A stretch of 62,960 bases of DNA, the filler included, from Bigelowiella natans CCMP2755 (taxonomy: Eukaryota; Protista; Cercozoa): the NCBI GenBank assembly GCA_000320545.1. It is 7 parts of 7 records of this genome, joined end to end, with 100 filler letters (N's around TTAATTAATTAA, not from the genome) between each part and the next. Parts side by side here need not be neighbours in the genome. Positions count along the whole stretch, not along the records: positions 23,319 to 43,887 come from ADNK01000128.1; 6 more parts are not named here. One strand, written 5' to 3'. Positions within the stretch are counted from its first letter, which is position 1; the number at the start of each line of letters is the position of its first letter. A program made the position numbers and the translations under genes. Below are positions 14,609 through 38,086 of this stretch, in pieces. The notes beneath the pieces are model-generated. The model did no database searches. It saw nothing but the letters and a program-made list of their open reading frames with translations, and was not told the origin of the DNA.

Positions 14609-16363
14609 CGCCCCCATGGACGTGGTGACCACGATCAGAGTGCTGATGTGCACGTGCCATTTCTGCCATGGTGACAGAACTTTTGCACGGTGCTGCACAT
14701 GGACGCCATTCCCAAAGGTTTCGGAGTCCGAATGGTTGGCAATGTTTTGCCGACCAAACATCGCACCACCAGACGCCCAAAAACTCTGTGCAGAGGCACA
14801 AAATTCCCAGGCTTGCAACTGGGCAAGGTGCCATGGGCATGGTGCACTCCGAAATCGGCAGGAAAAATTCTTGCCTGACTGGGCAAGGTGCCACCATTTC
14901 GGTACGAACTGGGACTTGTCCAAAAAATTAATTTTTTTTGAACGACACCAGTGTGCTTCCAGAAAAGAATTTTTCTGCGACACTGGTGCACTTCCAGAAA
15001 AAATTCTGGAATCCCCTGGGCACTTCCAGAAAGATTCCAGAAAAATTCCGGAATGCCCTACGTTCGTCACCTGCACCCACATGCGGTGTTGACCAAGGCT
15101 CGGTAGGTAGGTAGACAGGTGGGTAGTGCAAGTAGTCCTTTCCTCCTTCTTCTTCTTCTTCTGTTTTTCGTCATCAGCAGTACGAGCAGCACGACCCTTC
15201 TGGTTTGATCGTTGCTGTTTGATGCCATCTCTGTCACTTACACTGTCACTACTGCTGCTGCTGTTTGCGTTGTGATGGCTACGGCGGTCTACTTTGAAGG
15301 GTTGTTTCTGATGCCCATGAAAGTTCCAGAAAGATTCCAGATTGTTGCTGCGTTTTTGTGAGACTAAGCTAATACTAGCTGTTTCGTTAGTGATATGACG
15401 AGGAAGGGGGGGTGGAGGAGCCCCCTCAAAGCTTTGTTGAGGGACCGCTGCTCTTGCCTGGTCCCGAACGTTCGACCCCAAGTATGCTTCGCCCTGTAGG
15501 CGCGATTTTGTCTCATAAGGTGCGGCCAATTTCGATCTATCGGTGTCCTTGCCATGATAACCTTTTGTGCCAGAACCCTCATTGTGATAGATTCCCCTTC
15601 TGCCTGCTTCCATGAAGGGGGGAGCGAGGATTCTCTTACCGGAAAGCTATAACGACGGTTATTGAATTATTTATATAATAATGAGTCATCACTGAGCACC
15701 ATAAGGGGCGCTAACTTCCTCATAATGAATATTCACCGCTTCGACCGGCCTGGATCTGTGATAGCCATTTCTCTGCGTAACTATTTGGTTGTCTTTGTGA
15801 ATAGGCCCTCCTTGGTAGTCATGCTGTGGACGATCCGTTAACCCTGTATGGAGACTCAAGTTCACGTGCCTTAGAAATCGCTATATTACCCATGCTGCTT
15901 TGTTGCGGTCTCTGCATTTCTTTATTGTGGCCATTGTACATAGGAGCCACAGCAGATGCCTCGCCACTTCCAATATAATACCGATAATTGTGTGGATCTC
16001 CAGGCGATCGTTTTTCCTTTTGTTAACTTCGTAGGTATCTTGTAGTATACAGCTTTTGCATGTTCTCTCCTTATATTTGACTTCGTATTTGTTATACACT
16101 AGGTATCTCGTCTTCATTATTATATCCGCCCCCATGATTGTGCAGTGTCTGGAAGACACTGTGCAATCATATAGAAATCTATAGCGTATTCTACATTCGC
16201 CCCCATGATAGCGAGAGTGTCTGGAAGACACTGTGCATATAGTCCATAGCAAGATACGCAAGGAAAGGTACACACATACAAAGATGTGTGCCATTAAAAC
16301 CTTGCAGCCTATATGTTTATATGTTGTAGGTTTCTAAATGGACGTGGGGCTTTCATAGGGCGA

Positions 16364-19300: not shown

Positions 19301-20806
19301 TCTTTGTGTTTTTGTACTTTTGTTTATTTGTTTATATCTCAAATAAAATAGGCCGTCGTCTTGAAAGTCCCCGAACGCGTATTCCTCTCCGTTGGCGGTA
19401 ATGCTTATTCCTTGTTTTGTTCCTTTGTACTCGCTGCCACTCTTAACTAGTCTGTTTAGAGAAATCACATTGCCTGCAGCTTCTTCAGAGTACAAAGCTC
19501 CTTGTAGAACAATTTTATGCATCTTTCCTTGCTTGTTTTTCGTAGTTAGTTCGACGTCGCCTGCATAATCCACAAAGAATCCTGTCCCATCTTTGCCAAC
19601 TTCTATGTATCGTGGTTGAATAGGTTTCAACTCGTTGAAGAAGTCGCGGTCGCAGAAGAAGTGGTTGTTGGCTCCGCTGTCGAGAAGGATCAAAGGCTTA
19701 TGGTTGTACTTCAGCGTGTGCAGGTAAGAATTGTCGCGTGCCATCTTATTAATGTAAGAGGGTCTTTGGGAAGGGGAGCCATGATCTATAAAAGAATAGT
19801 GTTTTCCTTTGTTCTGCTTGCCTTCGTCTCTCATCTTGTTTCTGCATTCCTTTTCCCAATGTCCTTTCTTGCCACAGTAATGGCATTTTGTTCTTTTCTT
19901 TAAGTTCAAGAAATAGTCTTCTCTCTTTTGCTTCTTGGAATTGTCTTGATATGCTTCGCTGTTGTATCTGTTCTTTCCTTTGTTGAATTTCCTCTTGTAG
20001 GTCTTCAGCTGACCCGTAAGTTCATTTAGCCTTTTCTCCAAGCCATCGTACATCTTCACGTATTTGTGTTCTGCACTGGTGTGTCCTGCATGTTTCTTTG
20101 AAGGTTTCTGCCCGTCATCTAACGATCGGGAGTTCATGTGGGAGCGGATCATGTCCACTGCAGAGTCGAAGGTAACATCTTTCTTGTTGTTAATGACTGT
20201 TACTATAGTCTCGTATTTTTCTCTAGGTACAAGTCCTCGAAGTAGAGTGGTAAGAGCTTGATTGTCGGAGTATCCTTCGTGCTGTGCTCGAAGTCTTCTG
20301 ATCGTCGAGTCAAGGTCAGAATGATACTTCGTGAAGTCTCCATTGTACTGACCCATGTTTATATCACTTAGCTTCGAATAAAGTTTCCTGACGGCTACAG
20401 GATTGGTAGGCTCGTACTTCTCCAGCAAGGCTGCTAAGGTAACTGCTACGTCTTTGGGTTTTCCTTCGAGTAGATCGAAGAATTTATCAGGAAGGGTAGC
20501 AGTGAGGAAGAATCTTCCTCTCTTTCTTTTGTTTATCTTTTCTTGTGATCCTCTTCCTTCGGGTTTAGGGTTGAGGATGTCGAATTGCTCCTGAGAGAGC
20601 TTGAGTACTTCTCGTCGGTGAGCGGGGTCGGTGCGTACATTGACTTCTGTCACCTTTCCTTCTGTTTCTATGTTGACATTGAAGCATGATTCCAAATCCG
20701 CTGCTTCAAAGGCGGACATTAGCTTGTACATGTAGGGCTTGTAGTTGCTACCATCGTACTTGAGGGTGAAGTTTTTCAGCAGGGAGTCTATCTGCTTTTC
20801 TGACAT
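16364..20806 (-). CDS. Copia Gag-Pol polyprotein, 1480 aa, intact
   Basis: Zn knuckle CHYCGKKGHWEKEC; protease LDSGA; HHCC (HNILGH..CKAC); integrase DDE (IHSDV, RSDGGGEY, NGMSER); RT (YKSRLVARGFTQ, IYGLTQA, FVDD); RNase H (YVDASW, SSGEAEY, ADILTKAL). Confidence 0.97.
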   Translation of the reverse strand: MSEKQIDSLLKNFTLKYDGSNYKPYMYKLMSAFEAADLESCFNVNIETEGKVTEVNVRTDPAHRREVLKLSQEQFDILNPKPEGRGSQEKINKRKRGRFFLTATLPDKFFDLLEGKPKDVAVTLAALLEKYEPTNPVAVRKLYSKLSDINMGQYNGDFTKYHSDLDSTIRRLRAQHEGYSDNQALTTLLRGLVPREKYETIVTVINNKKDVTFDSAVDMIRSHMNSRSLDDGQKPSKKHAGHTSAEHKYVKMYDGLEKRLNELTGQLKTYKRKFNKGKNRYNSEAYQDNSKKQKREDYFLNLKKRTKCHYCGKKGHWEKECRNKMRDEGKQNKGKHYSFIDHGSPSQRPSYINKMARDNSYLHTLKYNHKPLILLDSGANNHFFCDRDFFNELKPIQPRYIEVGKDGTGFFVDYAGDVELTTKNKQGKMHKIVLQGALYSEEAAGNVISLNRLVKSGSEYKGTKQGISITANGEEYAFGDFQDDGLFYLRYKQINKSTKTQRFKSYPMKQPSSIKHAHNILGHIAADKIRDTYAVTEGLPYSKTIKIPKKIFCKACDVAKTKRSPIFDPSAQERMKQHRNKAKIEDDAVKKKQKCVPVIHKKNRMWNRIHSDVKTMPNSMDGYKYFVIFVHEGTRWVTLELMRKKSEVTQKTIQFLKHIRKLPGCGSIDEFRSDGGGEYMSAKLHSWLTSEGIKWVPSTARTPEQNGMSERHIQTIMAKTRAMLEHARLPVGYWSYAAQTAAYLHNVTSHRSTPGRKTPKELLHHEQPNLKNLTTWGCIGVNHIDKELRPAGGMGARGEYVRMLGYDDRFGTFLVATKTLKIRRVRVTKWYHTVFKFPSLKRNKVSDSALAYLYPEGPADADAPEPSSATDELPEDGGPETKAKSKPRRSNRENRGVPGIRYGILGSYYDRLMNIKAPSVQEIEDLPKTYDDAITGDDKKHWIPSTEEELHQLRKLGTFTLVVRPKDTNLVTSKWVFKKKINVDYTIRYKSRLVARGFTQIPGEDFFFSYSPTLSLNSFRIMLAIASILKLKLHGIDILTAFLTGKMDCKVHMEIPKGWKPKTPEEIRLYNSGLPLALLVNKSIYGLTQASAIFSLTLLEHLNAIGFVQLYSDPCLMIMHRQGRIIILSCFVDDICIAYQDKRDLDFVMKRIGDKFEFRDEGELKKTLGIRVGSDNEGNYWISQEDYLTRLAQKYDITPTKRAKTPMITGSKLDEYEEHDKVDQKAYRSIIGAAMYAAVATRPDICYTLSRLASYSQDPRTIHYIAAVRLLQYLVNTKDKRITFKAASKPELKAYVDASWKTCKKTGKSYSGYFISLSNAPVVWKSNKQKVVAMSSGEAEYIALSDICRELVYVTQLLQELKMKIPKPVPVYCDSQAAISIAAKPGFTQKGKNIRIEYHNVRDNYQTKQICINKIPGEDNPADILTKALPGPSNKKHCDFLFPISYREKLTIMLQGTRKRKITTKTLPYKLPRLVGPTSA

Positions 20807-20980
20807 GTTGTTTCGTTCCTGTTTTCTTTGTTTTCAGTGCTTTGGAGGCTTGACCGAAGATTGGCTGAGGGAATGCTGTTGTCGCTTTCAGTTCCTTCTT
20901 CTGGAAGGATGTAGCTGAAGGGGGGGGGTGGGGGGTTTGCTTGGTTCTTTTCTTTGTTGGTTCTCTAGCAAGTCCTCTTG

Positions 20981-20992
20981 AGGCTCATAACC
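20981..20992 (-). promoter_or_regulatory. Primer-binding site GGTTATGAGCC, complementary to the anticodon stem-loop of tRNA-Met (half-tRNA priming)
   Basis: Lies immediately 3' of the 5' LTR. The plus strand reads GGCTCATAACC, the tRNA-iMet anticodon arm, as in Drosophila copia and yeast Ty5. Confidence 0.85.
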
Positions 20993-21350
20993 TTTTAGCG
21001 GACTAGCGGTAGCTGTTTGGCTTTTGTGCGCGGGACTGTGCTGTTGATGTTGGAAAGTCAACACGCGGTCTCGTGTGCTTTTGGATTCTGATGATGACTT
21101 GTGACTTGCGCTGCACGCATGTGCGCATTGGGTTCCGGCGCATTCGCGAAGATTCTCGAATCTTCCAGAATTCTCTCGAATTCTCTCGAGTGTTTCTGGA
21201 AGGTTCTCGAAGCTTCCGGAATGTTCTCGAAGATTCTGGAAGTTCTGAGAACTTCCATGCGCATGTGCGCAGCGCAGCGTGCAGCACGAGTGGACGTGCG
21301 CATGCTGCGACAGCTCCTTGATCGTGGGTGGCGCGGCCAGACCGCTGACA
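20993..21350 (-). repeat. 5' LTR (358 bp)
   Basis: Apparently identical to 14251-14608. Confidence 0.95.
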
Positions 21351-22998: not shown

Positions 22999-23320
22999 AA
23001 ACGATAAAAATGGCCGAAAGAGACTCAAATCCGAACTGAATCACCTAAATCTTCGTGTTAAAGAAGGATCGTTTGTTAATTCACTCGGTCACTTATTGAG
23101 TTGTATTAAAGCTAGCTGAGTTGCCTTGTTCATTTCACCTTATTAGAACAGAGCTCACTCAAAATAAAGAGGAGCATTTTATTGGTGATAGCTTAATCAT
23201 GGGAATATTAGATATGAANNNNNNNNNNNNNNNNNNNNNNNNNNNNNNNNNNNNNNNNNNNNTTAATTAATTAANNNNNNNNNNNNNNNNNNNNNNNNNN
23301 NNNNNNNNNNNNNNNNNNTG

Positions 23321-23626
23321 ACCCCTCAATCAGGATTTTTCAAGACTGTAGCAGGTTCTTCTATGATTGTTAAGAACCTTATTACAGAACAGGATGTATT
23401 ATCAGCACAATTTGGAGGAAGTGATGTTGAAAACAAATTAGTCGGTTCAGGGTTCTTCAGCAGTCTAGCATCTAAAGTTGGGAAAACTGTGAAAAATATT
23501 GCCTCTAATCCTAAAGTTCAAGATGCCGTTCTTAAAATGGGAGCAAATGTGCTCAAGAAAAAGATGGGAGGTAAAGCATCCGTAAGTGGTGGTGGAATGA
23601 AAAAGAAACTCTCTTCATTATTATAA
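23321..23626 (+). CDS. Virophage major capsid protein, C-terminal fragment
   Basis: The frame is open from the gap: TPQSGFFKTVAGSSMIVKNLITEQDVLSA...KLVGSGFFSSL...SVSGGGMKKKLSSLL. This fits the Sputnik/YSLV-type MCP C-terminus pattern (SG.F....G.S......LT.QDVL.A...LVG.GF..SL, Gly-rich tail). Confidence 0.75.
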   Translation, partial: TPQSGFFKTVAGSSMIVKNLITEQDVLSAQFGGSDVENKLVGSGFFSSLASKVGKTVKNIASNPKVQDAVLKMGANVLKKKMGGKASVSGGGMKKKLSSLL

Positions 23627-23662
23627 ATTTTATATTATAATATTTTTATTAAACATTATAAT

Positions 23663-23974
23663 ATGAAAATATATATTAAACTAATGAAATCACCTCTTAA
23701 AAATAAGAAGCATAGGATGCTCTTTTATGTTGATAAGGGTGGAAGGATAATAAAAGTAAAACACACCGACTTTGGAGATAGTCGGTATAGCGACTTTACG
23801 ATACATAAAGATGAAAACAGAAAAGATAGATACCTGACAAGGCATATGAAGAATGAAGATTGGAGCAAATTCCTGACTGCTGGTTCATTATCTCGTTGGG
23901 TCTTGTGGAATAAACCTGATTTGAAGGATAGTTTAGAGGACTATGCTGATAAATTTAATCTCATCATACTCTAA
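23663..23974 (+). CDS. Tlr6F-like / DUF5754 small viral protein
   Basis: DFGD..YSDFT.HKD..RK.RYL.RH...EDW...TAG.LSRWVLWNKP motif, typical of the family shared by virophages, polinton-like viruses and phycodnaviruses. Confidence 0.75.
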   Translation: MKIYIKLMKSPLKNKKHRMLFYVDKGGRIIKVKHTDFGDSRYSDFTIHKDENRKDRYLTRHMKNEDWSKFLTAGSLSRWVLWNKPDLKDSLEDYADKFNLIIL

Positions 23975-24074
23975 TATCGTTGGTGGGGTCTAAATCCGTG
24001 TTCCTTGCTACTATCTTTCCTATCGTATAACCTATGGAAAAGATAAGTCCTAATATTAATAACACTACAATCAT
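23964..24074 (-). CDS. 36-aa single-TM viral micro-protein (not in the ORF track)
   Basis: MIVVLLILGLIFSIGYTIGKIVARNTDLDPTNDIRV*; hydrophobic N-terminal half; preceded by the same TAATCTAA spacer as the next gene. Confidence 0.5.
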   Translation of the reverse strand: MIVVLLILGLIFSIGYTIGKIVARNTDLDPTNDIRV

Positions 24075-24089
24075 TTAATAAAGATTAGA

Positions 24090-24299
24090 TTATTTTTCGT
24101 CGTCCATCAACATCCTAAAAGCACTATCAGTTAAATCACCAGTGTCATCAAAGGGTTGTTTCATAATATTTAATTGTATCAACAATTTGCTGTTCTCTTT
24201 TATCAGTTTCTTGTTTTGCTTTATCAATTTGTTTATCTCTTTTCTTAATCTTGTTAATCGTAGTTGTAATTGTAATAGTCTAACTATTTCCAGTAGCAT
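24090..24299 (-). CDS. Small coiled-coil viral protein, 69 aa
   Basis: Leu-heptad pattern; tightly packed between neighbouring genes. Confidence 0.6.
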   Translation of the reverse strand: MLLEIVRLLQLQLRLTRLRKEINKLIKQNKKLIKENSKLLIQLNIMKQPFDDTGDLTDSAFRMLMDDEK

Positions 24300-24314
24300 C
24301 TATAATGATTTAGA

Positions 24315-25274
24315 TTAAAAATTTAAATCTACTTCAAAGATGTCTTCTTTGTTCTCGTTTAATACATTAGCAGATTGGTAGTTGCTTTCTCTACTCTCAA
24401 AGAAATTGGTCTTGCCTTGTAAATCCAGTCTTTCCATCCAGGTCAAAGGATTACTCACATTGTGGATTGTATCATAACCTAATTTGAGTAATATGTTGTC
24501 TATTGTGAATTTGATATAGTCTAACATCATATCCGCATTCATTCCTAACAATCTAACAGGCAATGCTTGTGTGATGAAGTCTCGCTCAATACATAGTGCC
24601 TTATCAAACAAGACCGCTACTTCTGCTTGTGATAGTCTCTTCTCTAACTTATTGTATAGCATAATACTGAAACTATAATGTAGGTTCTCATCTCTGCTGA
24701 TAAATTCATTAGATAAAGTTAGACCTTTTAATATACCTTTCTGCTTGAAGTAGTAAATACAAGCGAACGAGGAAGCGAAGAATATGCCTTCAAAGATGAC
24801 CTGACATATCAATTTATGCTGTATGGAGTTGTACAACAAGACCTGTTTCCTACAGAAGTTAATTTTTTGTTCTATGATAGGATTATTCTTTACAGCATTT
24901 ATCAAATCCTCTTTCTCTTTTTTATCTTTTATCAAAGTATCTATCTGTAGATTGTATGTTTCTGTGTGTATATTTTCCATTTGCCTTTGAAAGTCGTAGC
25001 ACATACGAATTTCTAATGCCTTAAACTCATCGTATAGATTCCTATTTATCATTTCATTCACTTCAATATCACTATTCGCAAAGAAGATGAGGGTATATTT
25101 TAAATACTTTTGTTCGTCCTGACTTAATTTGGAGAAGTCATCGGCATCATTACTGAAATCTATTTCTTCGGCGGTCCAGTATCCTGCTTGTTGTATCTTG
25201 TAGGCATTCCATATGTCTTTGTGCCTGATTGGAAAGAGAGAAGTTCTATCAACATCTTTGAGTATACTATTCAT
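24315..25274 (-). CDS. Ribonucleotide reductase class Ia small subunit (R2), 319 aa
   Basis: FPI..DIW..YK...WTAEEID, FFANSD, ENIHTETY (radical Tyr), EGIFFASSF, ISRDENLH, KTNFFE.R..NYQ, C-terminal F...NF. Confidence 0.96.
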   Translation of the reverse strand: MNSILKDVDRTSLFPIRHKDIWNAYKIQQAGYWTAEEIDFSNDADDFSKLSQDEQKYLKYTLIFFANSDIEVNEMINRNLYDEFKALEIRMCYDFQRQMENIHTETYNLQIDTLIKDKKEKEDLINAVKNNPIIEQKINFCRKQVLLYNSIQHKLICQVIFEGIFFASSFACIYYFKQKGILKGLTLSNEFISRDENLHYSFSIMLYNKLEKRLSQAEVAVLFDKALCIERDFITQALPVRLLGMNADMMLDYIKFTIDNILLKLGYDTIHNVSNPLTWMERLDLQGKTNFFESRESNYQSANVLNENKEDIFEVDLNF

Positions 25275-25307
25275 ATATATATTATACTACATATTTTTAT
25301 ATTTAAT

Positions 25308-25538
25308 TTAATATTGTGTTTCAACACCTTCCGAGGGTGTTCTAAAGTGTTGAAAATGAAATTTGGAATAAATATATATTAACAATTTATTATTTGACAT
25401 ATTACATATATTCTTCTTAATCATAAGATAGCATCGACTTTGCTTCCATCTTCCACACTGACCTGTCAAAACCACTCCAGCGTCATCCTTTCTGTATGTG
25501 GTGAAATTGTCCGGGAGCTGCTTCACGATTAACTCCAT
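25308..25538 (-). CDS. Hypothetical viral protein, 76 aa
   Basis: ATG in AT-rich context within the packed viral gene array; no motif recognised. Confidence 0.4.
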   Translation of the reverse strand: MELIVKQLPDNFTTYRKDDAGVVLTGQCGRWKQSRCYLMIKKNICNMSNNKLLIYIYSKFHFQHFRTPSEGVETQY

Positions 25539-25792
25539 ATTAACTTTATCATATTCCTATATTATTAATTTACATATTTTTTTTTGAAATTTAATTTGTT
25601 GAGGAACTTAAGTTTAGGACTATGGTTAAGTCTGCGGAAATTGTGAGTTAAACACCCTGAATAACTTTGATGTAGGTATTCATCTATCATACTTATTATT
25701 CCTTTGGTTAATCCCTTGTGTATGAGTATTCGTTCTATTTCTTTATCCTTTAAAATAAACTACATATATTTTATATCTCACATTATGTATAT

Positions 25793-26877
25793 ATGGACCA
25801 GAAACAACCTTATAGTAGTGAAAGCAGTACTGATGATGATGATACTGATACTGAAACTGAAATGCCTAAAAAGTCAAACGGAAAAAGATAGTCAAACGAA
25901 AGAAGAAACCAACCATACTGGGAAGTTTAATCGGCAAGAAGAGTAAGGATTTAGTAGATGAACTGACCAGGGAGAAAAAGCAAGACCCTGAAGTAAAAGC
26001 AACCCACAACGATGCCTATGGGTATCCAGGTAAGCGAGGACAGATGGACTTGCTCTATCTACCTAATGATAGTGGGTTTAGATATTTATTAGTAGCAGTA
26101 GATAATCATACAAAACAAACTGATGCTATACCTCTACGATACAGAACTGCTGAAGCGGTAAGAAAAGCGATAGACAAGATATATTACGAGAACAAGGTAT
26201 TAAAACCGCCGAAAATCCTTCAGGTAGATGCTGGTAGTGAGTTTAAAAAAGGATTGGATGGGTATTTGAGAGAGAAAGGTATATATTTAAGAAGAGCAGG
26301 TGTTGCAAGGCATAGTCAACAGGCAAATGTGGAAGCACGAAATAAGAGTATCGGTAGTATCATCATTAAAACTCAGTTGGTGAAAGAATTAGAGAACGAT
26401 AAAGTAAGTAAGCAGTGGTTAAAGTTATTACCTGACATATTGAAGAAGTTGAACGAGAATGCTAAGGTGAAGAAGTTGAAGCAGACAGGAGAAGTTCCTT
26501 GTAAGGAAGGTGGTGATTGTGATTTGTACGAGGTCGGCAAGAAGGTGAGATACAAATTGGATTATCCTGTGAATTTTAAAGGAGAGAAACAAATAGGCAA
26601 TTTCAGGGAGGGCGACATAAGATATTCGTTGAAACCGCACAAAATTGAAAACATATTATTATTACCTGACCGACCAGTAAGATATATTTTGGAAGGTGTT
26701 TTAGACAAAACTTTCAGCAAGAATCAACTGAAACCTGCTGAAAACGAAATAGTCAAAAAAGCAATTGAGAAAAAAACACCGAAACCGAGGGAGAAGTGGA
26801 CCGATGAACCTGTTGAAATACGGACAAGTAATCGAAAAAGAAAGCAAGTTGATAGGGGATTTTTCGTGGATATTTAG
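25793..26877 (+). CDS. Retroviral-type (rve) integrase of virophage/polinton type; N-terminus split by a 1-nt frameshift at ~25870
   Basis: DDE triad QMDLL / LQVDAGSEF / NVEARNK plus RYLLVAVD. The frame stays open upstream of 26044 to ~25872, and restoring one A in the A5 run joins it to ATG 25793. Confidence 0.88.
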
Positions 26878-26939: not shown

Positions 26940-28847
26940 ATGGACAACAGCTTCTGGAGCTTACTCGGACTGAGCGATTGCAATCGCGATGCTCCCACAG
27001 GAACAGAATGCAGTGTGGATGAGTATGCAAATATTCTAGAGACAAATTCATTCATACTGTTGGCAGGATTTGTGCTCTTTTTCGTTTTTGCTCTGTGTGT
27101 CGTTGTATTTGGATGTTTTTGCGGACGGAGTAAAAGGCCAAGAACCTCTTCTGAGAAAGCTGACCATTCCAATCCTTCGACTAGAAAATCAGGAAACATT
27201 GATGCTGTTAAAAAACCTGTTGTTAAAAAACCTGTTGTTAAAAAACCTGTTGTCAAAATACCAGCACTAACAAAGAGTAAGAAAGAAGAACTGAAGAGAC
27301 TGCGAGACCAATACGAAAAACTCACTGTAGATATGAGAAAACAAATGGAATCTGACATAAATGATGGATTTGCTGGGGACGAGAAAGAAGCAAGAAGAAA
27401 AGTCAACGAAATGCCCCAAATCGCCACAAGAGTTTGGACAGCAAAAGCAATACGGGGTGCGGTTCAGCTAAAATTGAAAGTGTTGAGGGATAAGTTCCAG
27501 CAAAAGGTCAATCAAGGATACATCATACAGAAAGACCTTGACAACAGTCTAAAGGACATCCATCAAGGGGAAAATATTGATATTTCCACAAAAAAATGGA
27601 TAATAGACTACAGCGAATTATGGCAGGAATGGCAGGAACACAAGCAATTAGAAATGGAACACACGGAGTTAGATAGGTTCGTGGTGCCAGGATGGATGCA
27701 CGAATATGCTCTTTGCACTTGTAAGGCATTTCAAATTGAAGACGAATACACAAAAGCACAGGAACGACAGAAGAAAGAAAAGGAGGAAGCAGAGAGAAGA
27801 AAAAAAGAAGAAGCAGAAAGACAGCGACTGGAAGCAGAAAGAAAGAAGAAAGAAGAAGCACAAAGAAGGAAGAAAGAAGAAGCACAAAGAAGGAAGAGAG
27901 AAGAAGCGGAAAGAAGGAAGAAAGAAGAAGCGGAAAGAAGGAAGAAAGAAGCAGAGCGGAAACAAAAAATTTTGGAGGGAAAGATGTGGGGGAAAATCCC
28001 TGATATGAATACTGAGAGGAGTGGTTTGGGTGTGGCCGTTGGGGATGGCAAACTGTTTGCTGTTGGTGGGTATGATGGTAGTAATCGTCTCAACTCTGGG
28101 GAGTATCTGGATTTGAATAATATGGAAGCGGGGTGGACGAAAATCCCTGATATGAATACTGAGAGGAGTTGTTTGGGTGTGGCTGTTGGGAATGGCAAAC
28201 TGTTTGCTGTTGGTGGGAGTGCTGGTTATAAAAAAAAACACAAATCTGGGGAGTATCTGGATTTGAAGAATGTGGATGCGGGGTGGACGAAAATCCCTGA
28301 TATGAATAGTAAGAGGCAGGTTTTGGGTGTGGCTGTTGGGGGTGGCAAACTGTTTGCTGTTGGTGGGGATGATGGTAGTAATAATCTCAAATCTGGGGAG
28401 TATCTGGATTTGAATAATATGAAAGCGGGGTGGAAGAAAATCCCTGATATGAATACTAAGAGGAGTGGTTTCAGTGTGGCCGTTGGGGATGGCAAACTGT
28501 TTGCTGTTGGTGGGTTTGATGAAAAATCTGGGGAGTATCTGGATTTGAAGAATATGTCGGCGGGGTGGACGAAAATCCCTGATATGAATACTAAGAGGGA
28601 ATATTTGGGTGTGGCCGTTTGGGATGGCAAACTGTTTGCTGTTGGTGGGTATTATTATGAAGACGGTTGTAATTATCTCAAATCTGGGGAGTATCTGGAT
28701 TTGAAGGATGTGGGTGCGGGGTGGAAGAAAATCCCTGATATGAATACTAAGAGGAGAGAATTGGGTGTGGCCGTTGGGGATGGCAAACTGTTTGCTGTTG
28801 GTGGTAGTGCTCACAAATCAGGGGAGTATCTTCGCATCGCTATGTAG
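26940..28847 (+). CDS. Membrane-anchored Kelch beta-propeller protein (TM - helical domain - EK/ER single alpha-helix - 6 Kelch repeats), intronless
   Basis: TM FILLAGFVLFFVFALCVVVF plus Cys cluster; KKPVV three times; KKEEAERR repeats; six W.KIPDMNT.R..LGVAV.DGKLFAVGG...SGEYL units. Confidence 0.92.
   Translation: MDNSFWSLLGLSDCNRDAPTGTECSVDEYANILETNSFILLAGFVLFFVFALCVVVFGCFCGRSKRPRTSSEKADHSNPSTRKSGNIDAVKKPVVKKPVVKKPVVKIPALTKSKKEELKRLRDQYEKLTVDMRKQMESDINDGFAGDEKEARRKVNEMPQIATRVWTAKAIRGAVQLKLKVLRDKFQQKVNQGYIIQKDLDNSLKDIHQGENIDISTKKWIIDYSELWQEWQEHKQLEMEHTELDRFVVPGWMHEYALCTCKAFQIEDEYTKAQERQKKEKEEAERRKKEEAERQRLEAERKKKEEAQRRKKEEAQRRKREEAERRKKEEAERRKKEAERKQKILEGKMWGKIPDMNTERSGLGVAVGDGKLFAVGGYDGSNRLNSGEYLDLNNMEAGWTKIPDMNTERSCLGVAVGNGKLFAVGGSAGYKKKHKSGEYLDLKNVDAGWTKIPDMNSKRQVLGVAVGGGKLFAVGGDDGSNNLKSGEYLDLNNMKAGWKKIPDMNTKRSGFSVAVGDGKLFAVGGFDEKSGEYLDLKNMSAGWTKIPDMNTKREYLGVAVWDGKLFAVGGYYYEDGCNYLKSGEYLDLKDVGAGWKKIPDMNTKRRELGVAVGDGKLFAVGGSAHKSGEYLRIAM
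27987..28835 (+). repeat. Six near-identical Kelch-coding tandem repeats (147, 150, 147, 135, 156 bp + final partial)
   Basis: Units start at 27987, 28134, 28284, 28431, 28566 and 28722; aaaatccctgatatgaat and ggcaaactgtttgctgttggtgg are invariant. Confidence 0.95.
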
Positions 28848-28891
28848 ACTGCTTCCGCACACACACCGGGTCCAGTCTGGAGAAAATATGG

Positions 28892-29089
28892 TTATTTATA
28901 GCCATCTACAACTTCGCTCATTAGACAAATGTGGACTTCCATCAGTTTATCTCTCAGTTTGCGATAGAATTCAGGATTCAGTTCGGCTTTTAGTTCATCT
29001 ATTACGAGGACGATTTCACTAAGTTTATAGTCAACATCATAGATTTTATCTGCTGTGCTACTTTTATTTACTTGATTAATATTACTCAT
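28892..29089 (-). CDS. Hypothetical viral protein (~65 aa)
   Basis: MSNINQVNK...VVDGYK*, AT-rich viral codon style. Confidence 0.5.
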   Translation of the reverse strand: MSNINQVNKSSTADKIYDVDYKLSEIVLVIDELKAELNPEFYRKLRDKLMEVHICLMSEVVDGYK

Positions 29090-29194
29090 ATTAATCTTAT
29101 AGTGAGACAATTCTTTAAATAGAAATCATAGTTGGATGTTTGTAAAACTGGAATCCTTTTGCTAATAGCTTATGTTGTTAAGTATGTATGTTGT

Positions 29195-29345
29195 AGCAGT
29201 CGCATATCTATTAGTATATCGCTTCGTAATAGCAGTGTATTAGCACGGCATATCGCTTCGTAATAGCAGTCGCATATAGCAGTCGCATATCGCTTCGTAA
29301 TAGCAGTCGCATATTTATCAGCATATTGCTTCGGCACGGCATATG
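29195..29345. repeat. Subterminal modular repeat block A (AGCAGTCGCATAT / CGCTTCGTAAT / GCACGGCATAT)
   Basis: Short units repeated 3-5 times in shuffled order. Confidence 0.8.
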
Positions 29346-29355
29346 TGTCTGTTTT

Positions 29356-29973
29356 TCAAACGACATTCTTTTTTAGTTGTGTTATTTTTTCTGGATAATT
29401 GTATGATAGATAAATGGAATATTTGTTTTTGTATTTTCTTTTTAACAAATCATAACAGAAATCAAATAATTCTTTGTGTCTTTTAGAAATGTTTTTGAAT
29501 TTTCTCATTTTTTTAATTTTCAAAAACAACTTGATTAATCCTTCAAAGCCTAATTTATTTTTGTAAATTTCAAAAAAATCGTGGAAACTGATTGATTTTT
29601 TAGCTCTTAATTTGAGACTTAAACTGTGCGAATATTTTGTTTTGTTTAATTGTTGTAAAACTCGTTTTTTTTCATTTAGGTAATTGTAAAGACCATATGA
29701 AAAGAGTTTTTCGTTCGTTGAAAAGTTGGCAGATGCTTCCACATCAACATTTTTATATTCACTTAATTCACTATATTTGTTTTTGAGGTATATGACATTA
29801 CAAGTTTCTAAATTTATGAAACTTCTACAATATCGTTGACAAGAAATCATACATTTTTTATGCTTACCTATCGCACAACTTTTCAGAGATTTCCATTCTT
29901 CAATAGCATTCTCAATGTCATTAGATTTAGAAAGAATTAATAATTTTTTCACCAATTCGTTAGATTTGTTCAT
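29356..29973 (-). CDS. Hypothetical Lys-rich viral protein, 205 aa, with an N-terminal Cys cluster
   Basis: Long, very AT-rich ORF; A..EW...C....KC..C...C...N..T.N. Confidence 0.6.
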   Translation of the reverse strand: MNKSNELVKKLLILSKSNDIENAIEEWKSLKSCAIGKHKKCMISCQRYCRSFINLETCNVIYLKNKYSELSEYKNVDVEASANFSTNEKLFSYGLYNYLNEKKRVLQQLNKTKYSHSLSLKLRAKKSISFHDFFEIYKNKLGFEGLIKLFLKIKKMRKFKNISKRHKELFDFCYDLLKRKYKNKYSIYLSYNYPEKITQLKKNVV

Positions 29974-30045
29974 AACTAACTTACATATAACACATTTCTT
30001 TATATACTTTTTCGTATGAGCATCTCACAACACAATGCTATCAAA

Positions 30046-30200
30046 CCAGTCGCATATTAGTCAGCAGTCGCATAGCACGGCACATAGCACCGCAAATCGC
30101 TTCGCACGGCACGGCACATAGCACGGCATATCGCTTCGCAACATACATACATACATAGCACGGCATATCGCTTCGCACGGCATAGCACATCGCATATAAT
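30046..30200. repeat. Subterminal modular repeat block B (AGCACGGCA(C/T)AT / CGCTTCGCA / CAGTCGCAT)
   Basis: Same unit vocabulary as block A; CAGTCGCAT recurs at 30441. Confidence 0.8.
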
Positions 30201-32116
30201 GACATCGTATGCTTCTTCATTTTTTTTCAGACCCCCACTTTAATTAGTGTTTTTTTCTAACCTCATTCATTTTATAACTAATGAGGGCTTATGGGGCATT
30301 TCAAAAACCAAACTTTTTAATATATATATATATATATATATTAAAATACTTACATACTTTATATATATAACCCCCGCCCCCGGAAAACACCCCCTGGGAA
30401 ACATGAGTATAATAAGGTAATATGATACAGCATAATGATACAGTCGCATAATGCTGTCGCATCGCTTTGCGAGCAGGTGGGCTCTGCCCACATCGCAGAT
30501 ACCGCCATTGGCGGTTATAATAATTATTATTATTATTACTTACACATCACACACACCATCATCATGAAATCATGTGCTGGTGTCTCCAACCGACTCGTGT
30601 TGCTAATGGCATTGCAACTGCTTGCTTTTGCAATGGTGTTGATTCATGACATGGACATTGCTGCCAAGTGCAGTGCCAGTGCATGCTTCGTTGAAGGGGT
30701 CTAGGCATTGCAGTCTCCTCGCCATCAATGGTTTATCAATCCAGCAATCGATGATGATGATGATGATCATGATGATGATACCGAGAACGGTCGTTCACAT
30801 GTGCGTTGCCACAGCACGTTCTCCAGCCCACACGTCAATGCGAGCCAAGGCATTGCATGGATTTTTGGAGCTCCAGGAACGGTGCTACCATGAGTTGCCA
30901 CTGTCTCAATGTGTTTCCGTTCTTTTGGGCCCAGGGCAAGGATTTTTGCTTCAATATGCGCAGTGGTAGCAGCAGAATCATCTCCCAAGTCTGGAACCAC
31001 AGGATCGAAACAGTGTGACTTTGGGGATCAGATTGTGATCTGTGTAGTCGATCTCGTCCACACATGAGCGCATGAACAGTCAGTTAACATGCCCGCAATG
31101 GTTCCCCCTCTCACCTACTATAGTTACTTGATGTCTGCATCCCCATGCTTCTCTTCCTCCCAAATTTCGTCATCGGGCCCACAGGGGCTCACGTCTTCAT
31201 GCTCCACTGTTTTGTCTTTTTCGATGTCGAAACCCACTTTCTCGACCTCCTTTCGAACTCTTCTTCCGCACATCATATTCCTCTAATTGAGCAAGTCAAC
31301 ATGGGCCCTCCAATTCATCCTTCTCTTCAGTCAGGTGTGTGCGAGGATTCGAAGAGATGCTCATCATTGTCAGGTTCGTAGTGCACACACTCCTCACCCT
31401 CACCACATTCCCTATCTACTCAATCTAACAAGCTAGCATTTAACATCAACTCTTGAACTCCTGTCTTGGCCATCAATGGTTCTGATTATCATCCAACCGC
31501 ATGTGTGCATTGGTGCCGATCCACCCCGGTCCTCCTGCGAGCACGAATGTTTGTTTGTTTTTAGTTTAAGTTAGATGTTAGGAGTCCTTTGGAGTTGTCG
31601 TTGGGTCAAAACACCCATGCCAGGCGGAAGACTCAGGCGTCGCAAATGGGCCTGCTTTTCTTCGATTTATCGGAGGCGACTGGCCGGTTTTCATCTATAA
31701 TTCGCATGGCAGGTGCAGAGCGTGGGAGCGGAGCGTCATACTCGCTTTCATGCTGAGCAGAACCAATTGCTGATACAGCTCATCTATCACTCCAGCGCTG
31801 AGAACGGGTGCTTGGAGCCCACCCTATCCACTTGAATGCTATTCTAGAGTAAGCACTCTCTTACGGCTAAGCACAAGCGGCTCAGTTAAACAGTAGCAAC
31901 CGCAGCCGATTGGGGGGTTGCTGTTGCAGTCATAGGATCTTCTCCAAAAGGAAGGGTTCGACGCATTATGGGTATGGGAAATATTTTGATTCTCACACAT
32001 CACCAGGGGTTGAATAAAATACATTTTCCTATTTTCCAGCCGTCAAAACCCCAACCAAAGCTTTGCCGGTCTACACGCCACGATGCAAAGCTGTAGCTAG
32101 CACTGCTGCATGCTTG

Positions 32117-33384
32117 ATGCTACTCGCCCTTATCCTTGTTTTGGAGTGGCCCAGAGCGTGCTCTCCTTCGGGATCTCCAAATGACGGCGATATTATCTTG
32201 CAAATTGAAGCAGAGAGCGATTCAGAGAGGTATAGCATTTCTACCTGCCATAATCGAGTAGATACTCTAGATAAGGGGAGACAGAGTAATGATAAGGAAA
32301 TTTGAACTCATGGCACCTGCTTTATATATTTGCTTTTAGTAAGTCACAACTTCAAGATATAGTGCGGAAACAGCAGGTTAGACACTGAGACTAAAATTTA
32401 TGAAGAATTTTTAAAGCAAGAATAATTTTCGTCGGAATTGCCCAGGAAATGGTTTGTCTGACGAAACTGTATGATATATTTCAGGAACGAATCAAGCAAC
32501 TTGAAAATGATTTATTAGCTGCTAATTCCGGACCTCGTGTAAGTTTAGAGCTGATGACGTCTGCTAATGACTTACATCAGCAGAAAGAAGGGCATCCGAA
32601 TACGAGCACCCTTCTCTTGATACCAGGTTTTGGTTGTAACAAGACAAAAACTTTTAATATCACACTTCGCAACTTAAGGAGCATCATGCAGAATACTAAA
32701 TCTAGCAGTGTGGATTGTCTTTTGGGGAGCTATGTAGCCCGTGATCTTTACTTTAAGGAGGAGTACACCCGCAAAATAATAACAGAAATAGAACAGATGT
32801 GCTACGTAACATATGCACCAGGAACGCAATATGCGGATTGGGAAAGATTCGTCCACCCAATGCTTCTGAAGAAAGCTGCATACACATATGTGATGCTCCT
32901 TGCAGATGACGTGGAGCTACTTAAATTTGACTTAGATCAGGCGATTCAGGCCATGCAACGGTGGGGTATGGACGTCATCTCACCTTCGGTGCACGGTTCT
33001 GTGCACCCAACCACACGGTATGATAAAAGAAGAGACCCAGCCTCGATTCTGAACGTCACCATGATAGAGGCATTCACGATGGTGTTTAATGTGAGAGCAT
33101 GGCAGTGCTGGTGGCAAGTATCTGACCACATATACCTCAGCAGAGGATGGGGTTCTGATCTCATATTCCGTGATCACTGCTTGAAAGTACACCCAGATAT
33201 AACCCTTGGGGTTTTGCCAGGGATGGAAGCTAAGCACTACGGCCATTGTTCTGGCTCGGTTGGAAACGTAAAATTACGTCCCAACAATAGGCATAAGCGA
33301 TCAAATATACAGTGGCATGAATGGCGACGTTTCAACTATAATCCTCCCCGTGGTGTGATAATCAACACGATCAAGCTCGAATAA
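32117..33384 (+). CDS. DUF707-like GT-A-fold putative glycosyltransferase with signal/anchor (exons 32117-32229, 32340-32376, 32485-33384)
   Basis: YTYVMLLADDVEL..FD...I..M...G.DVISP, IEAFTMVF...AWQCWW.......GWGSD match the DUF707 pattern; in-frame splicing; hydrophobic N-terminus. Confidence 0.65.
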
Positions 33385-33879
33385 GTTCGTCCTCGGATTC
33401 TCATTTTCATATTGTTATCACCACGTTGATTTTAAAGCCTGCGATAAAAATGCTTCGACTTTATTTGATGCCGTCTATTTGAGCAGCCCAGAAAGCATAT
33501 CTTACTTGTGTGATGCGATGTGCTGCCATTCCCAAAGGATAGACACATTCTTGACGGTGACGATGATGATTTGTGAGACGGATGCAATGAAGTGATTGAA
33601 CATTTTTAATAGTCTTCTCAATGTAGCCATGCAAAGCAGCGGCTACAGCGCTTGTGGTACGTTTGTCTCTGCTCTCACGTGCATCATGCAATTAGAAGCA
33701 TCTGTGCATGTCCTGTCGTCGATGTCCCGCAGTGCGCGCAGCGGTCCATGCTTCTTGTCCAGCTATTGTTCGTGGCATCGTCTCATCGTTTCGATTCATG
33801 ATTGCACTCAATTGGTTTTCCAATCTTAGCTGTTGGTGTTTGTGTGCTTTGCATTGAAGGAGATGATCCATGTCTTTCA

Positions 33880-34780
33880 CTTCCCTGAATTTGCAAGGAA
33901 GAATGAAAACGAAGGGTCGACAGCGGGAGATGTCTGGGATTGGTGTTTGATGAAAAGCTGACTTTTGAAAAACACGACCTTGCCACACATCCAACATTGC
34001 AGAAGAAGAGAACAAGGTTTCCATTGAGGTCGTGTTCGAGATTGCTTGAGCCGTCAAGTGTCACATTGAAACTTTGCAAAACGTGGTGCATTGCGACTAG
34101 CAGGTGTGCAGTGCCCATGTGGAGATCTCGAAAAGTGCACAGACACACAAGGTGATGGATTCCACGAAATCACAAACTTTGAAAAGGATTTCGGGACTGC
34201 CTGGCTAGCTGGACCTGTTTCCAACGACATTTCTCACGTTCTCGCTGCCACACTGCTGCAAACTGCCACCACGGTGACGAACAAAAGTGCAATGTGCAAA
34301 AACTTCATTGCGTGCCAACGCTTGGATCGATGATGGTGATGGCTGCACATTGGACGAAGAAGTGCAAATTTGGAGTGGCTTTGGTTTCCAAACACATTGA
34401 GGATGGAAGCCAGTGCAAGAAAGCACCTCTGTTTCGCCGCCCAGTTTGATCGCCAACGACCCACTGGGCGATGAACTTCCCACCATTCGAACGACAAAAT
34501 CAGCACTCAAAATAGATCTCAAAAAACGTCGTGAAACAAACAAGTTTGCTGCTTCACCTGCTTTTGACGAAGAAAAATTGTCCAGTGATTTGACCAGAGC
34601 TGCACAGCTGAAACACTTTGGTTTCCTTCCGTCCTCTCGCATCACAGGCATCAAGTTGAAATTGCCAAGCATTGCCATCTCATGGATGCGTGCCATCTGC
34701 AGGGTCGGCGACGTCCTGAGGACACGTGCAGGTTCTGTGTGCAACGATGTGGTGGTGCATGATGAGCAGTGCGTGTGACG
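33880..34780 (+). pseudogene. Decayed non-LTR retrotransposon (LINE; I/Jockey-like RT thumb and C-terminal region)
   Basis: RCLGLVFDEKLTFEKH...LKLCKT...RCAVPMW...LKRISGLP corresponds to LINE consensus (K/R)YLG..D.KLTF..H / LYK / YA.P.W / LR.I.G; stops and frameshifts present. Confidence 0.7.
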
Positions 34781-35295
34781 CAACATGGCAACAGTGTGCA
34801 GAGTGCATTCAACGTGCATGTGCGTGCTGTGTGTGCAGCTGGCTAGCTAGTGCGTGTTCACACATGCTAGCATGGCTTGTCGTTGATTCTTTTAGCATGG
34901 GATGTGAACTCCGTGATTGGATCATCTAGTCGCATGCGTCAATGTCAGTCTGAAGACACGTCACACGCACTATGTGCATGCGGTGTCCATGCTAGCATGG
35001 AAAAGAAACATTGAAACATTGATTGCAATTTGATGTTCAACACAATGCATGCACTGCGCTGCTGGCGTGAAGATGCGCCTACAGTTTTTTTCCCTAGCCA
35101 ACGTGTTCAATTTCCATCATCAGCAAAATTGTCACGTGTGTAGACGTATGCCATGCTCGCTTGGTTCTGATTTGCACTGTCAAAATCCGCCATCATTAGC
35201 ATCATCTAATTGACATATTACAATTTGAAGTACCATCGTAATCCCAGGGCTCTATTTCGAAGATGGAGTTCATGTGTGCTTGGTCTCGGTTTTGG

Positions 35296-38086
35296 TTAGC
35301 TACCCTCAGTTGGCTTGCCACCCTCAGTCAGACCAAGACTTTTGCAATGTTCGTTGCAAACGTGTCTGTCAAAAAAAGCTTGAATGCCAGCTTTCTTCAA
35401 ATTAGTGCTTCCGAATTCCCTCTGCTCACAGTGAATTGATGGATCAGTGAAGATGTAGCTCTCTTTTGAATCAGCACTTTCAACCGAAATTCCTTGCACA
35501 TCAGCGATCATGAGGAAACCATTTGTGAATTCATGCGACCAATGAATGAAAGCTTCGACTGTCGGATTGTTGACACTATGTTGGAAGTTGTTGGTCCATC
35601 TCTCAAAATCTCCCCCTTCAAGTAATCTTTCGAGAACCCCCACTCTCTTCCGTCCTTCCTTGTCTTTGAAATGGACGAGGCTAGTTTTTAGGTAGCGAAG
35701 CTTTATCCCCCACTCGACACTTTTTTTGCTGAACTCTCGAGCAAGAAATGCTGCAACTGTTTGCGCTTGGACGTCAAATTTAGATCTTATTTCATCATCT
35801 ATATTATCGGTGTATTTTTGGTGAACTTTTAGAACGTAGTAAATTGGTTTGTCGAAGGACACATCTGTGGCTTTGTAGGCGCTGCGGACAGCCCCACGGT
35901 CGAACTCCTCATCAGCAACTACAAATTGCCGAATCTTTTTCGAATCTTTAATGTGCATCGGATTCTTGAGGTCCTCTGCCTTTGTGGGAAAATGCAACGT
36001 TGATTTGGCCACAATCTTGGCATCGGGTTTGTCCTTCACCGTAGCTCCGATTTTTGAATCTGTACATTCAGTACCATCTGACTCTTCCTCGGTGATTGAA
36101 CCTAGTACCTTTTTGTGATACTTGGCAAGCTTTCGGACGCCATCACCATCCTTCCCCATCGAAGCACTCGAGGCAATGGTGATGGAGTCTATCGTGGTCT
36201 TCACTGCAATCTCTATGATTTCACCAGCCTCTCCTAGTTTCCGAGTAAGAATATGATCATCCTCATCTTCGCCGAGAAGCTCATTGTATCTTTTGATCAT
36301 GTTATCTGTTTCGTTACCAATTTTCAAAAAAATTATTTTGGCACCAAAACCCTTAACTAGCTTTTCGAGAACTTCCTTAGATCTCCTCCCGTCACTGTCG
36401 AAATCTTTGAAATTATCCCTCCATTGCGGCTCGAAAAAAGAACCATGGGATGGAGCATCTCCACAGAAGAATACTATCTTATTAGGAATCCTTGCCTCCC
36501 ATTTCAGATCTAACAGTGCCTGCAGCCCTCCAAAGACATCTTCGTGGTAGTCATATCCATTTTTTGTCTTCACTGCAGCAACCATTTCTGAGAATTCTTT
36601 GCTGTCCTTACTGAACGGAAACTTGTACATTCGCTCATCTCTTTGCGATTCCTTCTCCTGTTTGATTGCCACATGTAAGTGTCCTCGTATCCATGGAATG
36701 ACTCGCACGCAGCACCAAAAAACTCAAAATCAATGTAGCACTTACGCGGTAGTCGGTGTAGCCCACGAATCCGAACTGAATGTCTGCATCACGCCCAATG
36801 CATCGCAGTGCCTAAAAATAAGCAGTATACACAAACCAATATTTGTGAATTGTAGCGAGTAGGAAGAAGTTGTTGGAATCGAAAATGTTGTGTACCTCGT
36901 CCTTTATTTTTATTATGGCATCCTTGGCAGCTTCAATGTATTTCTCCATTGATAACGTGCAATCTAAAAGGAACGCGATTTGTGCCTTCCTAGCATTTTT
37001 CAGCTCTCCCAACTTCTTTTGGAGTCGTTTATTTAGTTGTCGTTCTCTCGCATACATGAATTCTTTGGTTCCTTGCAAAATGTCCTTCAATTTTTGGAGC
37101 GTGAAAAGCTTCACATCTACATCTAATGCTCCATGAGTCAGTTTGTAAATTAATTTTATAATTTTTATCTTTTCCGCTCGTTCCGGGTCAAAGGGACCCG
37201 GACCCGGCTGCGGCTTCCCTCGGTCAAGAGTGATAACCATTCCGGCAGAAGGATACTTCGATCCTTTTTTTTTATTCAATCCGAGTATCATGACTCTGAC
37301 TTTTTTCATTCTCCAATTTTTAGGAATATTACCCCTCACATTTGTGGCGCGAAACATTACACTCTCTTTTTGATCAGTTGTGATGAAGCCTGTCCCTTTT
37401 GTAAAGTCATAATTTGTGATATATCCCTTAATGCTATTATCGGGTGGTGACTTCGAAGCCTTCACTGCAGATGCGTGGAGATCTTCGTCTTTGGTGATAT
37501 AATACTCAACAGCAACTTCATCATTTTTGCTAAAGGGTCTGTAGTGGACACGAGAGTGCAAGAAGTACACTACTCTTCCGAGACCAATGTCAACAAGCCC
37601 TCCTTTCTGGCCTAATTTGATTATTGTGCCATTGCCTTTGTAGATTACCCTTTGTGGGCTTTTGCGTGGGCTTTTGCTTCGGCTTCTGCTTCGGCTTCTG
37701 CTTCGGCTTCTGCTTCGGCTTTTGCTTTCCCACGTAGATTTCCATAACTCCTCGATTTTCGCTTTCCAATATTTATTCAGAGCATCCACTGACATTCCGG
37801 GGTTTTCAGACTTAACCAGGGCCATCACTGCTTGACCTACGGACTTCGAAAATTGATAATAGCTAGGAACACTTCCACAGCTCTTCCATAACTGTCCAAT
37901 TCTCGTCATCTTGTTTTTATTCAGAACAGACCCTGACATTCCTGGGTTTTCAGACTTTACCAGGGCCATCACTGCTGGACCCACAGACTTCGAAAATTGA
38001 CCATAGCTAATATTCTTAAGTGCAGAATCGCCATGTTTGGATTCGTTGTGTTTCATGACCATACCAGCAGGAACATCAGCTGACAT
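35296..38086 (-). CDS. Alpha-kinase (eEF2K/MHCK family) with vWA domain and N-terminal 2x HMG-box-like, RS repeat and 2x cold-shock/OB domains (exons 36896-38086, 36746-36811, 35296-36657)
   Basis: vWA: FLLDCTLSM, FGFVGYTDY, EDV.GGL, GDAPSHG. Alpha-kinase: F.RGAVR.AY, YVLK, Q..A..LA.EF, LE..L.G.F..W.NN, AF.HWS......MIADVQG, FTDPSIH, G.TN....GI..FF..H.CN..C. Exons splice in frame. Confidence 0.92.

Follow-up and report, generated by a model that had tools for sequence, protein, structure and literature searches.

Recombining Kelch propeller cassettes associated with provirophages of Bigelowiella natans

A gene in Bigelowiella natans CCMP2755 (GenBank assembly GCA_000320545.1) had been singled out, from its sequence alone, as a virophage-borne, membrane-tethered Kelch propeller with a homogenized framework and hypervariable binding loops, and had been proposed to be an antibody-like receptor or effector under arms-race diversification. 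The locus raises the question of whom such a gene serves, how its loops come to differ and what they might bind. Our best explanation as a whole, to which we give a probability of about 0.55, is that the gene belongs to a recombining family of Kelch cassettes at provirophage ends, which would encode cytosolic binders selected at their loops, likely with giant-virus targets. Positions refer to the window, that is, the whole stretch of 62,960 nucleotides that was analysed, in which seven parts of the assembly are joined by filler; the locus lies in the part from ADNK01000128.1 (23,319 to 43,887).

The provirophage element and its Kelch gene

A low-GC island from ~23319 to ~30550, inside a microsatellite-rich eukaryotic contig, holds in order a capsid tail, a DUF5754 gene, the small subunit of ribonucleotide reductase (RNR), an rve integrase, the Kelch gene, and repeat arrays with a variable ORF (Table 1). 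The end of Bigna1 aug1.85_g18969, a model with the Pfam domains Sputnik_MCP_1st and MCP_V20_C, matches the capsid tail at 100% identity, and the island therefore reads, by sequence, as a Sputnik-type B. natans provirophage. Together with the adjoining RNR and integrase, this identity upholds the claim that the gene is virophage-borne. The Kelch ORF begins 62 nt past the integrase stop and, as had been noticed, is richer in GC (0.43) than the DUF5754, RNR and integrase genes (0.33–0.37).

The deeper contig of a DNA run (X1) carries 19 extra nt at 25871, in the integrase, and the 25%-GC ORF between the arrays has an X1 contig depth of 53 compared with ~100 for the core, with alternative sequence past 29278. 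Within the window, the second arm of a terminal inverted repeat (TIR) is absent; TIRs of 2.0–2.6 kb, as reportedly given in the 2015 provirophage paper, would extend from the right end as far as the blades. Neither the cassette nor the virophage was found in IMG/VR with the Kelch protein, the integrase, the major capsid protein (MCP) tail, the blade motif, the relative P0009 or the full MCP as queries. As to an interrupted host gene, an alpha-kinase was all that Pfam found in 59 of the 83 flanking frames.

Beside the element, long ORFs of 42–44% GC at 32449–38086 encode a DUF707 protein, the alpha-kinase and a 424-aa protein of no known family, compared with 59% GC in a host IFT exon. TpA is strongly depleted (0.16–0.26), with an excess of CpA/TpG, at 30601–30900, 34001–35000 and 59001–60000, which are probably hypermutated foreign DNA. 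The window also contains an intact copia LTR retrotransposon at 14251–21350 (1480-aa ORF; LTR pieces at 100% identity), part of which recurs in inverted orientation at 58858–60034.

Table 1. Features of the provirophage element and the Kelch cassette gene (window positions)
Feature	Position	Strand	Basis or remark
Virophage major capsid protein, C-terminal 101 aa	23320..23626	+	Remainder lost at N gap 23219-23318
Spliced RNA across virophage core	23375..26432	-	8/8 listed core joints GT-AG or GC-AG
DUF5754 protein	23663..23974	+	Pfam E 2.8e-14
Ribonucleotide reductase small subunit, provirophage	24315..25274	-	Pfam E 3e-78; other B. natans models hold copies at 98-99.7% identity
rve integrase, frameshifted near 5' end	25793..26877	+	Pfam rve; split frames
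Kelch cassette gene	26940..28847	+	Intronless ORF, 635 aa; Pfam; RNA reads match allele
Leader module, single predicted transmembrane helix (27054-27110) and juxtamembrane Cys	26940..27203	+	Hydropathy; charges; N-out/C-in predicted
Helical middle module, no known family	27267..27764	+	Stand-alone ENA protein P0146 shares 31% identity over 178 aa
E/K/R-rich predicted single-helix stalk	27765..27974	+	77% E/K/R (residues 276-345)
Six-blade Kelch propeller	27975..28847	+	Homogenized framework; hypervariable loops DA (the 2 post-Arg codons) and BC (following GG)
3' UTR, family-wide, to poly(A) site at 29105	28848..29105	+	9 X21 reads with A tails
Two short-repeat arrays flanking 25%-GC ORF (29356-29973, minus)	29190..30200		ORF in some copies only
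Right end of element, approximate (probable)	30200..30554		X21 and X22 have loose ends at 30554; depth is single-copy from 30964 on

The protein matches Pfam Kelch_1 with an E value of 1e-42. Structure prediction, which had been suggested as a check, gave a closed six-blade propeller (AlphaFold with a 46-sequence alignment; pLDDT 96, pTM 0.93) that matches KLHL17 (Z 38.8, rmsd 1.5 Å over 258) and Keap1 (Z 37.9). The Pfam repeats, the closed model and Z scores of 38–39 place it among the six-blade Kelch propellers. No BTB, BACK, F-box or NACHT domain was found by Pfam in the window protein, nor BTB, BACK, NACHT or NB-ARC in Pfam scans of this protein and eight paralogs.

The six blades start at 27993, 28140, 28290, 28437, 28572 and 28728 and run to 28847. 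In agreement with the sequence-only reading, they are near-identical in DNA, synonymous sites included: among blades 1–5, framework identity is 91.5–95.7% (mean 93.2%), and over 39 framework codons each pair differs synonymously in 0–1 and non-synonymously in 4–7, while pairs with blade 6 have 3–4 synonymous differences in 29 codons. Over a comparable segment, between-blade identity is 82% in the window protein, compared with 27–50% in eight animal KLHL/Keap1 proteins and 56–58% in two other chlorarachniophyte Kelch proteins.

Both variable series listed earlier were recovered exactly, namely SG, SC, QV, SG, EY and RE after the Arg, and YDGSNRLN, SAGYKKKHK, DDGSNNLK, FDEK, YYYEDGCNYLK and SAHK after GG. 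In the AlphaFold model, the two post-Arg residues form the DA linker immediately before strand A and the post-GG segment forms the BC loop. DA and BC loops are described as shaping the upper-face substrate pocket of Kelch domains (Canning et al., PMC3597819), which agrees with the assignment of the variable spots to the binding face. A third and milder variable patch, which had been missed, lies in the CD loop, across the propeller from the binding face, with one position at 2.0 bits compared with 3.5, 2.6 and 2.9 bits at top-face positions.

The membrane tether and the long charged stalk of the original proposal are both predicted in the window gene, but neither is general in the family. The best 19-residue hydropathy (3.18) falls at residues 39–57, with Cys at 53, 59 and 61, and a transmembrane (TM) segment occurs in only 2 of the 12 family members examined. 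Over 72 aa, Cys motif included, the leader shares 63% identity with P0142 (scaffold 28), and it is 88% identical to P0137. An origin of the Cys cluster from Tyr via TpA hypermutation was rejected, as the GCFC motif is also present in P0142. By the positive-inside rule, the K/R side of a TM helix faces the cytosol; with no K/R before this helix and five after it, the propeller is predicted to be cytosolic. An outward-facing, antibody-like receptor, as originally envisaged, is therefore unlikely. The middle module has no match in Pfam, NCBIfam or the ESM Atlas. A helix at residues 253–333 appears in a single-sequence full-length AlphaFold model, which at pLDDT 45 is good for helix positions only, and the stalk is absent in the closest paralog, P0001, and shorter by 162 nt in a contig of X16.

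Exchange of blades and N-termini in the cassette family

The Kelch cassette is shared by at least 11 B. natans gene models. Of the best ten protein matches to the window protein, nine are B. natans models and one comes from ENA; a search with the propeller only adds two B. natans models and P0153, a related Kelch protein of Lotharella globosa with the same DLKNVDAGW/DGKL signature. Two further members lie on metagenome contigs (L001, L002). Most members end in GE.LRIAM, and the start of the window 3' UTR is common to L001 and L002. N-termini include the TM leader with helical domain (window gene and P0001), SAM domains (P0002, L001), a kinase fragment (P0008), a coiled coil and several of no known type; for that of P0007, the ESM Atlas gave no usable match. 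From ENA, P0009 (on a 278-kb metagenome contig) is a diverged family member with a P0003-type N-terminus, and P0047 (502-kb contig) is an unrelated collagen-plus-Kelch protein with blades 85% identical, perhaps a giant-virus fibre.

The window gene and P0001 have N-termini that are 90% identical and share none of six BC loops. Similarly, L001 and P0002 are 97–98% identical in their N-termini and share 0/6. P0003 and P0006 share 5/5 loops, partly reordered, so turnover is not instantaneous. One blade, RSIR-WG-...-ANDKDVPYK, occurs twice in P0003 and again in P0006 and P0004, at internal and terminal positions, and P0004 carries it despite an unrelated N-terminus. Across 52 blades of nine proteins (without the hypermutated P0001 and P0008 and the divergent P0009 and P0010), framework identity is 0.86 within genes and 0.84 between them, with 0 of 2000 permutations as high; 46 blades hold 27 DA dipeptides and 37 BC loops. 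The suggested check for blade shuffling or gene conversion thus points to exchange both within and between genes. Judging from these comparisons, N-termini are replaced much more slowly than blades, which also change position and pass from gene to gene.

EukProt accession numbers were taken as gene order, with which three checkable pairs agree, and nine Kelch models (leaving out P0148 and P0150) were compared with eight listed virophage RNRs. Four of the nine lie within 12 accession numbers of such an RNR, a closeness expected by chance in ~0.9% per gene (hand arithmetic, 21,708 genes). On scaffold 85, Kelch 020357, RNR 020359 and MCP 020361 repeat the window's order with an unrelated N-terminus; on scaffold 57 the SAM-Kelch model 001938 adjoins RNR 001939, and on scaffolds 18 and 54 the distances are 7 and 12. 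A fifth model is 24 away and the other four are far from any listed RNR, one of which (P0005) adjoins an ORF with the window-type TM leader (P0137). None of the nine is near the RNR/MCP elements on scaffolds 161 and 187. Further, one X1 contig at single-copy depth departs from the window sequence at the integrase end (26868), passes through different sequence and rejoins it at the blades (27992). From this gene order and this joining contig, the cassette sits at a set place in the virophage, and its front ends can be exchanged.

X1 contig depth is 16 in the flank, 92–108 in the viral core and 13 in each of two middle-domain versions, and the summed depth in the 3' UTR is 210–379, or 13–24x compared with 6–7x for the core; contig depth is not copy number, and these ratios are rough. 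Cassettes probably outnumber viral cores. The excess may consist of a second terminal repeat, solo ends or host copies, and many cassette copies may lie outside virophages. On scaffold 54 (RNR 011395, MCP 011397, Kelch 011407) the Kelch model lies beyond the MCP, and this order, together with the depth pattern, hints at a cassette at the other virophage end too.

Copies of this kind could also belong to a self-spreading host family of diversifying binders in chlorarachniophytes, immune-like as fungal HNWD, with virophages as passengers or vectors and not the beneficiary. Such a family would accommodate the Lotharella relative, the TM leader's matches to the scaffold-28 models P0142/P0144, one paralog with a kinase fragment and one with SAM domains, the GC of the Kelch gene above that of the viral core, the surplus of cassette over core depth, and the five of nine models away from listed RNRs. 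It sits poorly with an intronless gene placed directly after the integrase, with the four models near viral RNRs and with the finding that ~4–5x of the 7x core depth runs on into the same leader, and we consider it unlikely. Cassettes that reside at provirophage ends and serve the virophage remain the reading that we prefer.

Transcription, loop change and competing explanations

X21, a raw RNA run of which ~6% was read, shows transcription of the window allele with next to no reads from the viral core. Depth is 87 at the Kelch 3' end and peaks at 26 in the copy-specific part, and no core bin (23320–26719) exceeds 0.42. Reads at the 3' end may stem from any paralog, and the copy-specific part discriminates: the paralog allele occurs in 0/21 reads at 27722 and 0/17 at 27705, where reads carry the window allele. 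The genome around 29105 is not A-rich. In a comparison with two (X15 and X16) of six metatranscriptomes, marine X15 contained contigs identical to 27229–27500 and 27506–27783, although contigs alone do not prove transcription; runs X16–X20 cover little of the window. A single invariant copy whose loops vary no more than neutrally expected, or a gene missing from other virophage copies and unexpressed, had been named beforehand as fatal to the idea of diversification; neither situation applies here.

Two further observations concern the RNAs. A 9-bp AU hairpin at 29073–29097, which ends 8 nt before the poly(A) site, is weak (z -2.2, 8/200 shuffles) and recalls the hairpin rule of mimivirus. The minus-strand spliced RNA has eight introns of 54–456 nt (6 GT-AG, 2 GC-AG), all of them in X15 and two also in X22, where the chance of GT-AG is ~1.2% per joint. 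It cuts through the RNR ORF and is antisense to the MCP, DUF5754 and integrase genes; 12 minus reads end at 26845. It is possibly a silencing or hypermutation-guiding RNA, and a search of the literature on antisense splicing found nothing relevant.

Selection was assessed at the DNA level by minimal-step counting, with 18 blades from three loci in the larger set. At the three most variable loop codons, which were picked post hoc and in blades that are not independent, the non-synonymous rate per site is 9.7 times the synonymous rate in the six window blades (p 8e-6) and 4.8 times in the 18 blades (p 2e-6). Eight codons served as the search anchor, and without them the excess is 9.2 and 4.1. 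The core shows a non-synonymous value of 0.10 compared with a synonymous value of 0.44, indicating purifying selection, and pairwise the DA loop has pN 0.58 compared with a framework pS of 0.08. The predicted excess of amino-acid change in the loops was thus recovered at 5–10 times the synonymous rate, as a count on post hoc sites, and positive selection of the HNWD type at these codons is correspondingly putative.

Part of this pattern would also arise by neutral turnover, in which repeats in or near terminal repeats are homogenized and surface loops tolerate change with no arms race. Synonymous steps are raised in the loop codons as well (6 in 2.1 sites compared with 13 in 27.9), so local dN/dS is near 1 there, and long-held loop alleles or a local hotspot fit as well as directional selection. 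Bottom-face loops vary too, and some copies are decaying: P0001 and P0008 are hypermutated and read through the stop, L002 is frameshifted after its second BC loop, and P0150 is also frameshifted. However, a 6-nt patch between 93%-identical flanks should co-convert with them, yet it holds 27 dipeptides in 46 blades, and it changes several times faster than synonymous sites while the core is under purifying selection. The bottom-face excess is 1.3x and non-significant (18 blades, p 0.28). Neutral turnover is, on balance, improbable, and selection on the binding loops is retained in our explanation.

A virophage structural or exclusion protein, such as a variable particle adhesin or a factor that keeps out competing virophages or PLVs, would suit a gene that sits in the viral array, and the homogenized blades of P0047 are what a fibre tip might have; the predicted cytosolic topology, the intracellular-type N-termini (SAM, kinase) and transcription while capsid-region reads are near zero make it quite improbable. 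B. natans hypermutates viral DNA at TpA (bioRxiv 10.64898/2026.01.13.699255), in a preprint whose main text makes no mention of kelch. This process has hit some cassette copies, removing stops (P0001, P0008), and has spared the window copy. A dedicated mutator that writes the loop diversity, either a diversity-generating retroelement (DGR) or host TpA hypermutation, is largely refuted: 18 of the 29 N-terminal differences between the window gene and P0001 fit TA>TG/CA, but only 1 of 21 loop changes does, these 21 comprise nine substitution types with six changes from A and so lack the adenine-specific pattern of a template repeat, and Pfam found no reverse transcriptase among the viral ORFs scanned of this partly assembled element.

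Taken jointly, the following steps of the preferred explanation appear to us quite probable. The gene is positioned after the integrase of a Sputnik-type provirophage, in a slot where other copies hold different N-termini. Its blades outpace the N-termini in turnover, moving between genes and positions, with change concentrated in the DA and BC loops and the core conserved, and it is transcribed with the viral core almost silent in X21. Unequal crossing-over and gene conversion among near-identical blades would homogenize the framework and shuffle the loops, and recombination at the stalk/propeller junction would swap N-termini. Beyond these steps, the window variant may be membrane-anchored, probably by palmitoylation as well, with the spacer holding the propeller in the cytosol. 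Made in latency, it might bind a rapidly evolving protein of the giant virus or of its factory, thereby restricting the giant virus or tying the virophage to its helper. That the target is a giant-virus protein is a guess, to which we give somewhat less than even odds. More doubtful is the wider idea that provirophage termini form a combinatorial library, in which a shuffled Kelch head and interchangeable effector or localization modules would make up a latently expressed antiviral repertoire.

Significance and comparison with known systems

Virophages are known to protect protists by being reactivated and parasitizing the factory of the giant virus. A latent, fast-diversifying binder, if confirmed, would represent a second protection route, nearer to prophage-borne defence genes, and an antiviral repertoire would protect the host without virophage reactivation. 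The reading is open to experiment, as B. natans can be cultured and isolates exist of giant viruses that infect chlorarachniophytes (ChlorV; PMC13196603). In addition, nature provides in this family a collection of six-blade scaffolds that differ in their loops and come close to the designed SAKe proteins.

Several known systems share parts of this picture. Repeat modules are recombined into varied binding surfaces in lamprey VLRs, DGRs and Ectocarpus LRR-ROCO proteins; unlike these, the cassette shows no somatic assembly, template repeat or exon-per-repeat arrangement, and its loop changes depart from the DGR mutation pattern. The six-blade fold is that of KLHL/Keap1 BTB-Kelch and poxvirus BTB-Kelch proteins, and in KLHL/Keap1 the DA and BC loops likewise shape the pocket (PMC3597819). 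The cassette differs from KLHL/Keap1 in having no BTB, BACK or F-box and in its far higher identity between blades, and poxvirus BTB-Kelch proteins are structural matches only (13–22% identical).

The element resembles described B. natans provirophages in its low GC, the identical Sputnik-type MCP, the integrase, multiple copies and transcription, whereas the provirophage accounts in the available parts of two reviews describe no Kelch cassette, shuffling or N-terminal swapping (PMC6723459, PMC5127031). No description of a Kelch cassette was found in the virophage, Bigelowiella and chlorarachniophyte literature searched, a search outside which lies the primary 2015 provirophage paper, which may list the ORF. 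Endogenous virophages of Cafeteria (EMALEs) also carry an rve integrase and, in EMALE07, the RNR small subunit, and have TIRs of 0.2–2.3 kb; unlike the element studied here they are Mavirus-type, and the available text describes no such diversifying cargo (PMC8547959).

The closest counterpart is the HNWD/NWD family of fungal WD40 propellers, along with other fungal NLRs whose repeats are highly conserved internally; it combines high internal repeat conservation, exchange, diversifying selection on binding-face positions and varied N-termini, as far as described in PMC4986451. The evolutionary regime is therefore already on record. In Podospora, HNWD/NWD repeats are ~85% identical, close to the framework value of the cassette, and are exchanged within and between genes with varied N-termini; a few binding-face positions diversify, under diversifying selection in the fungi and with a counting excess in the Kelch loops; and a mutator that targets repeats interacts with both, RIP in fungi and TpA hypermutation in B. 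natans. Unlike HNWD/NWD, the cassette is Kelch and not WD40, has no NACHT/NB-ARC and has loops of variable length, is carried at least partly by an integrated virophage, and has at most a putative role in nonself recognition. By analogy, the cassette would work like HNWD repeats, yet it is not an NLR, and it would extend the repeat-shuffling strategy of HNWD to Kelch propellers and to a virus.
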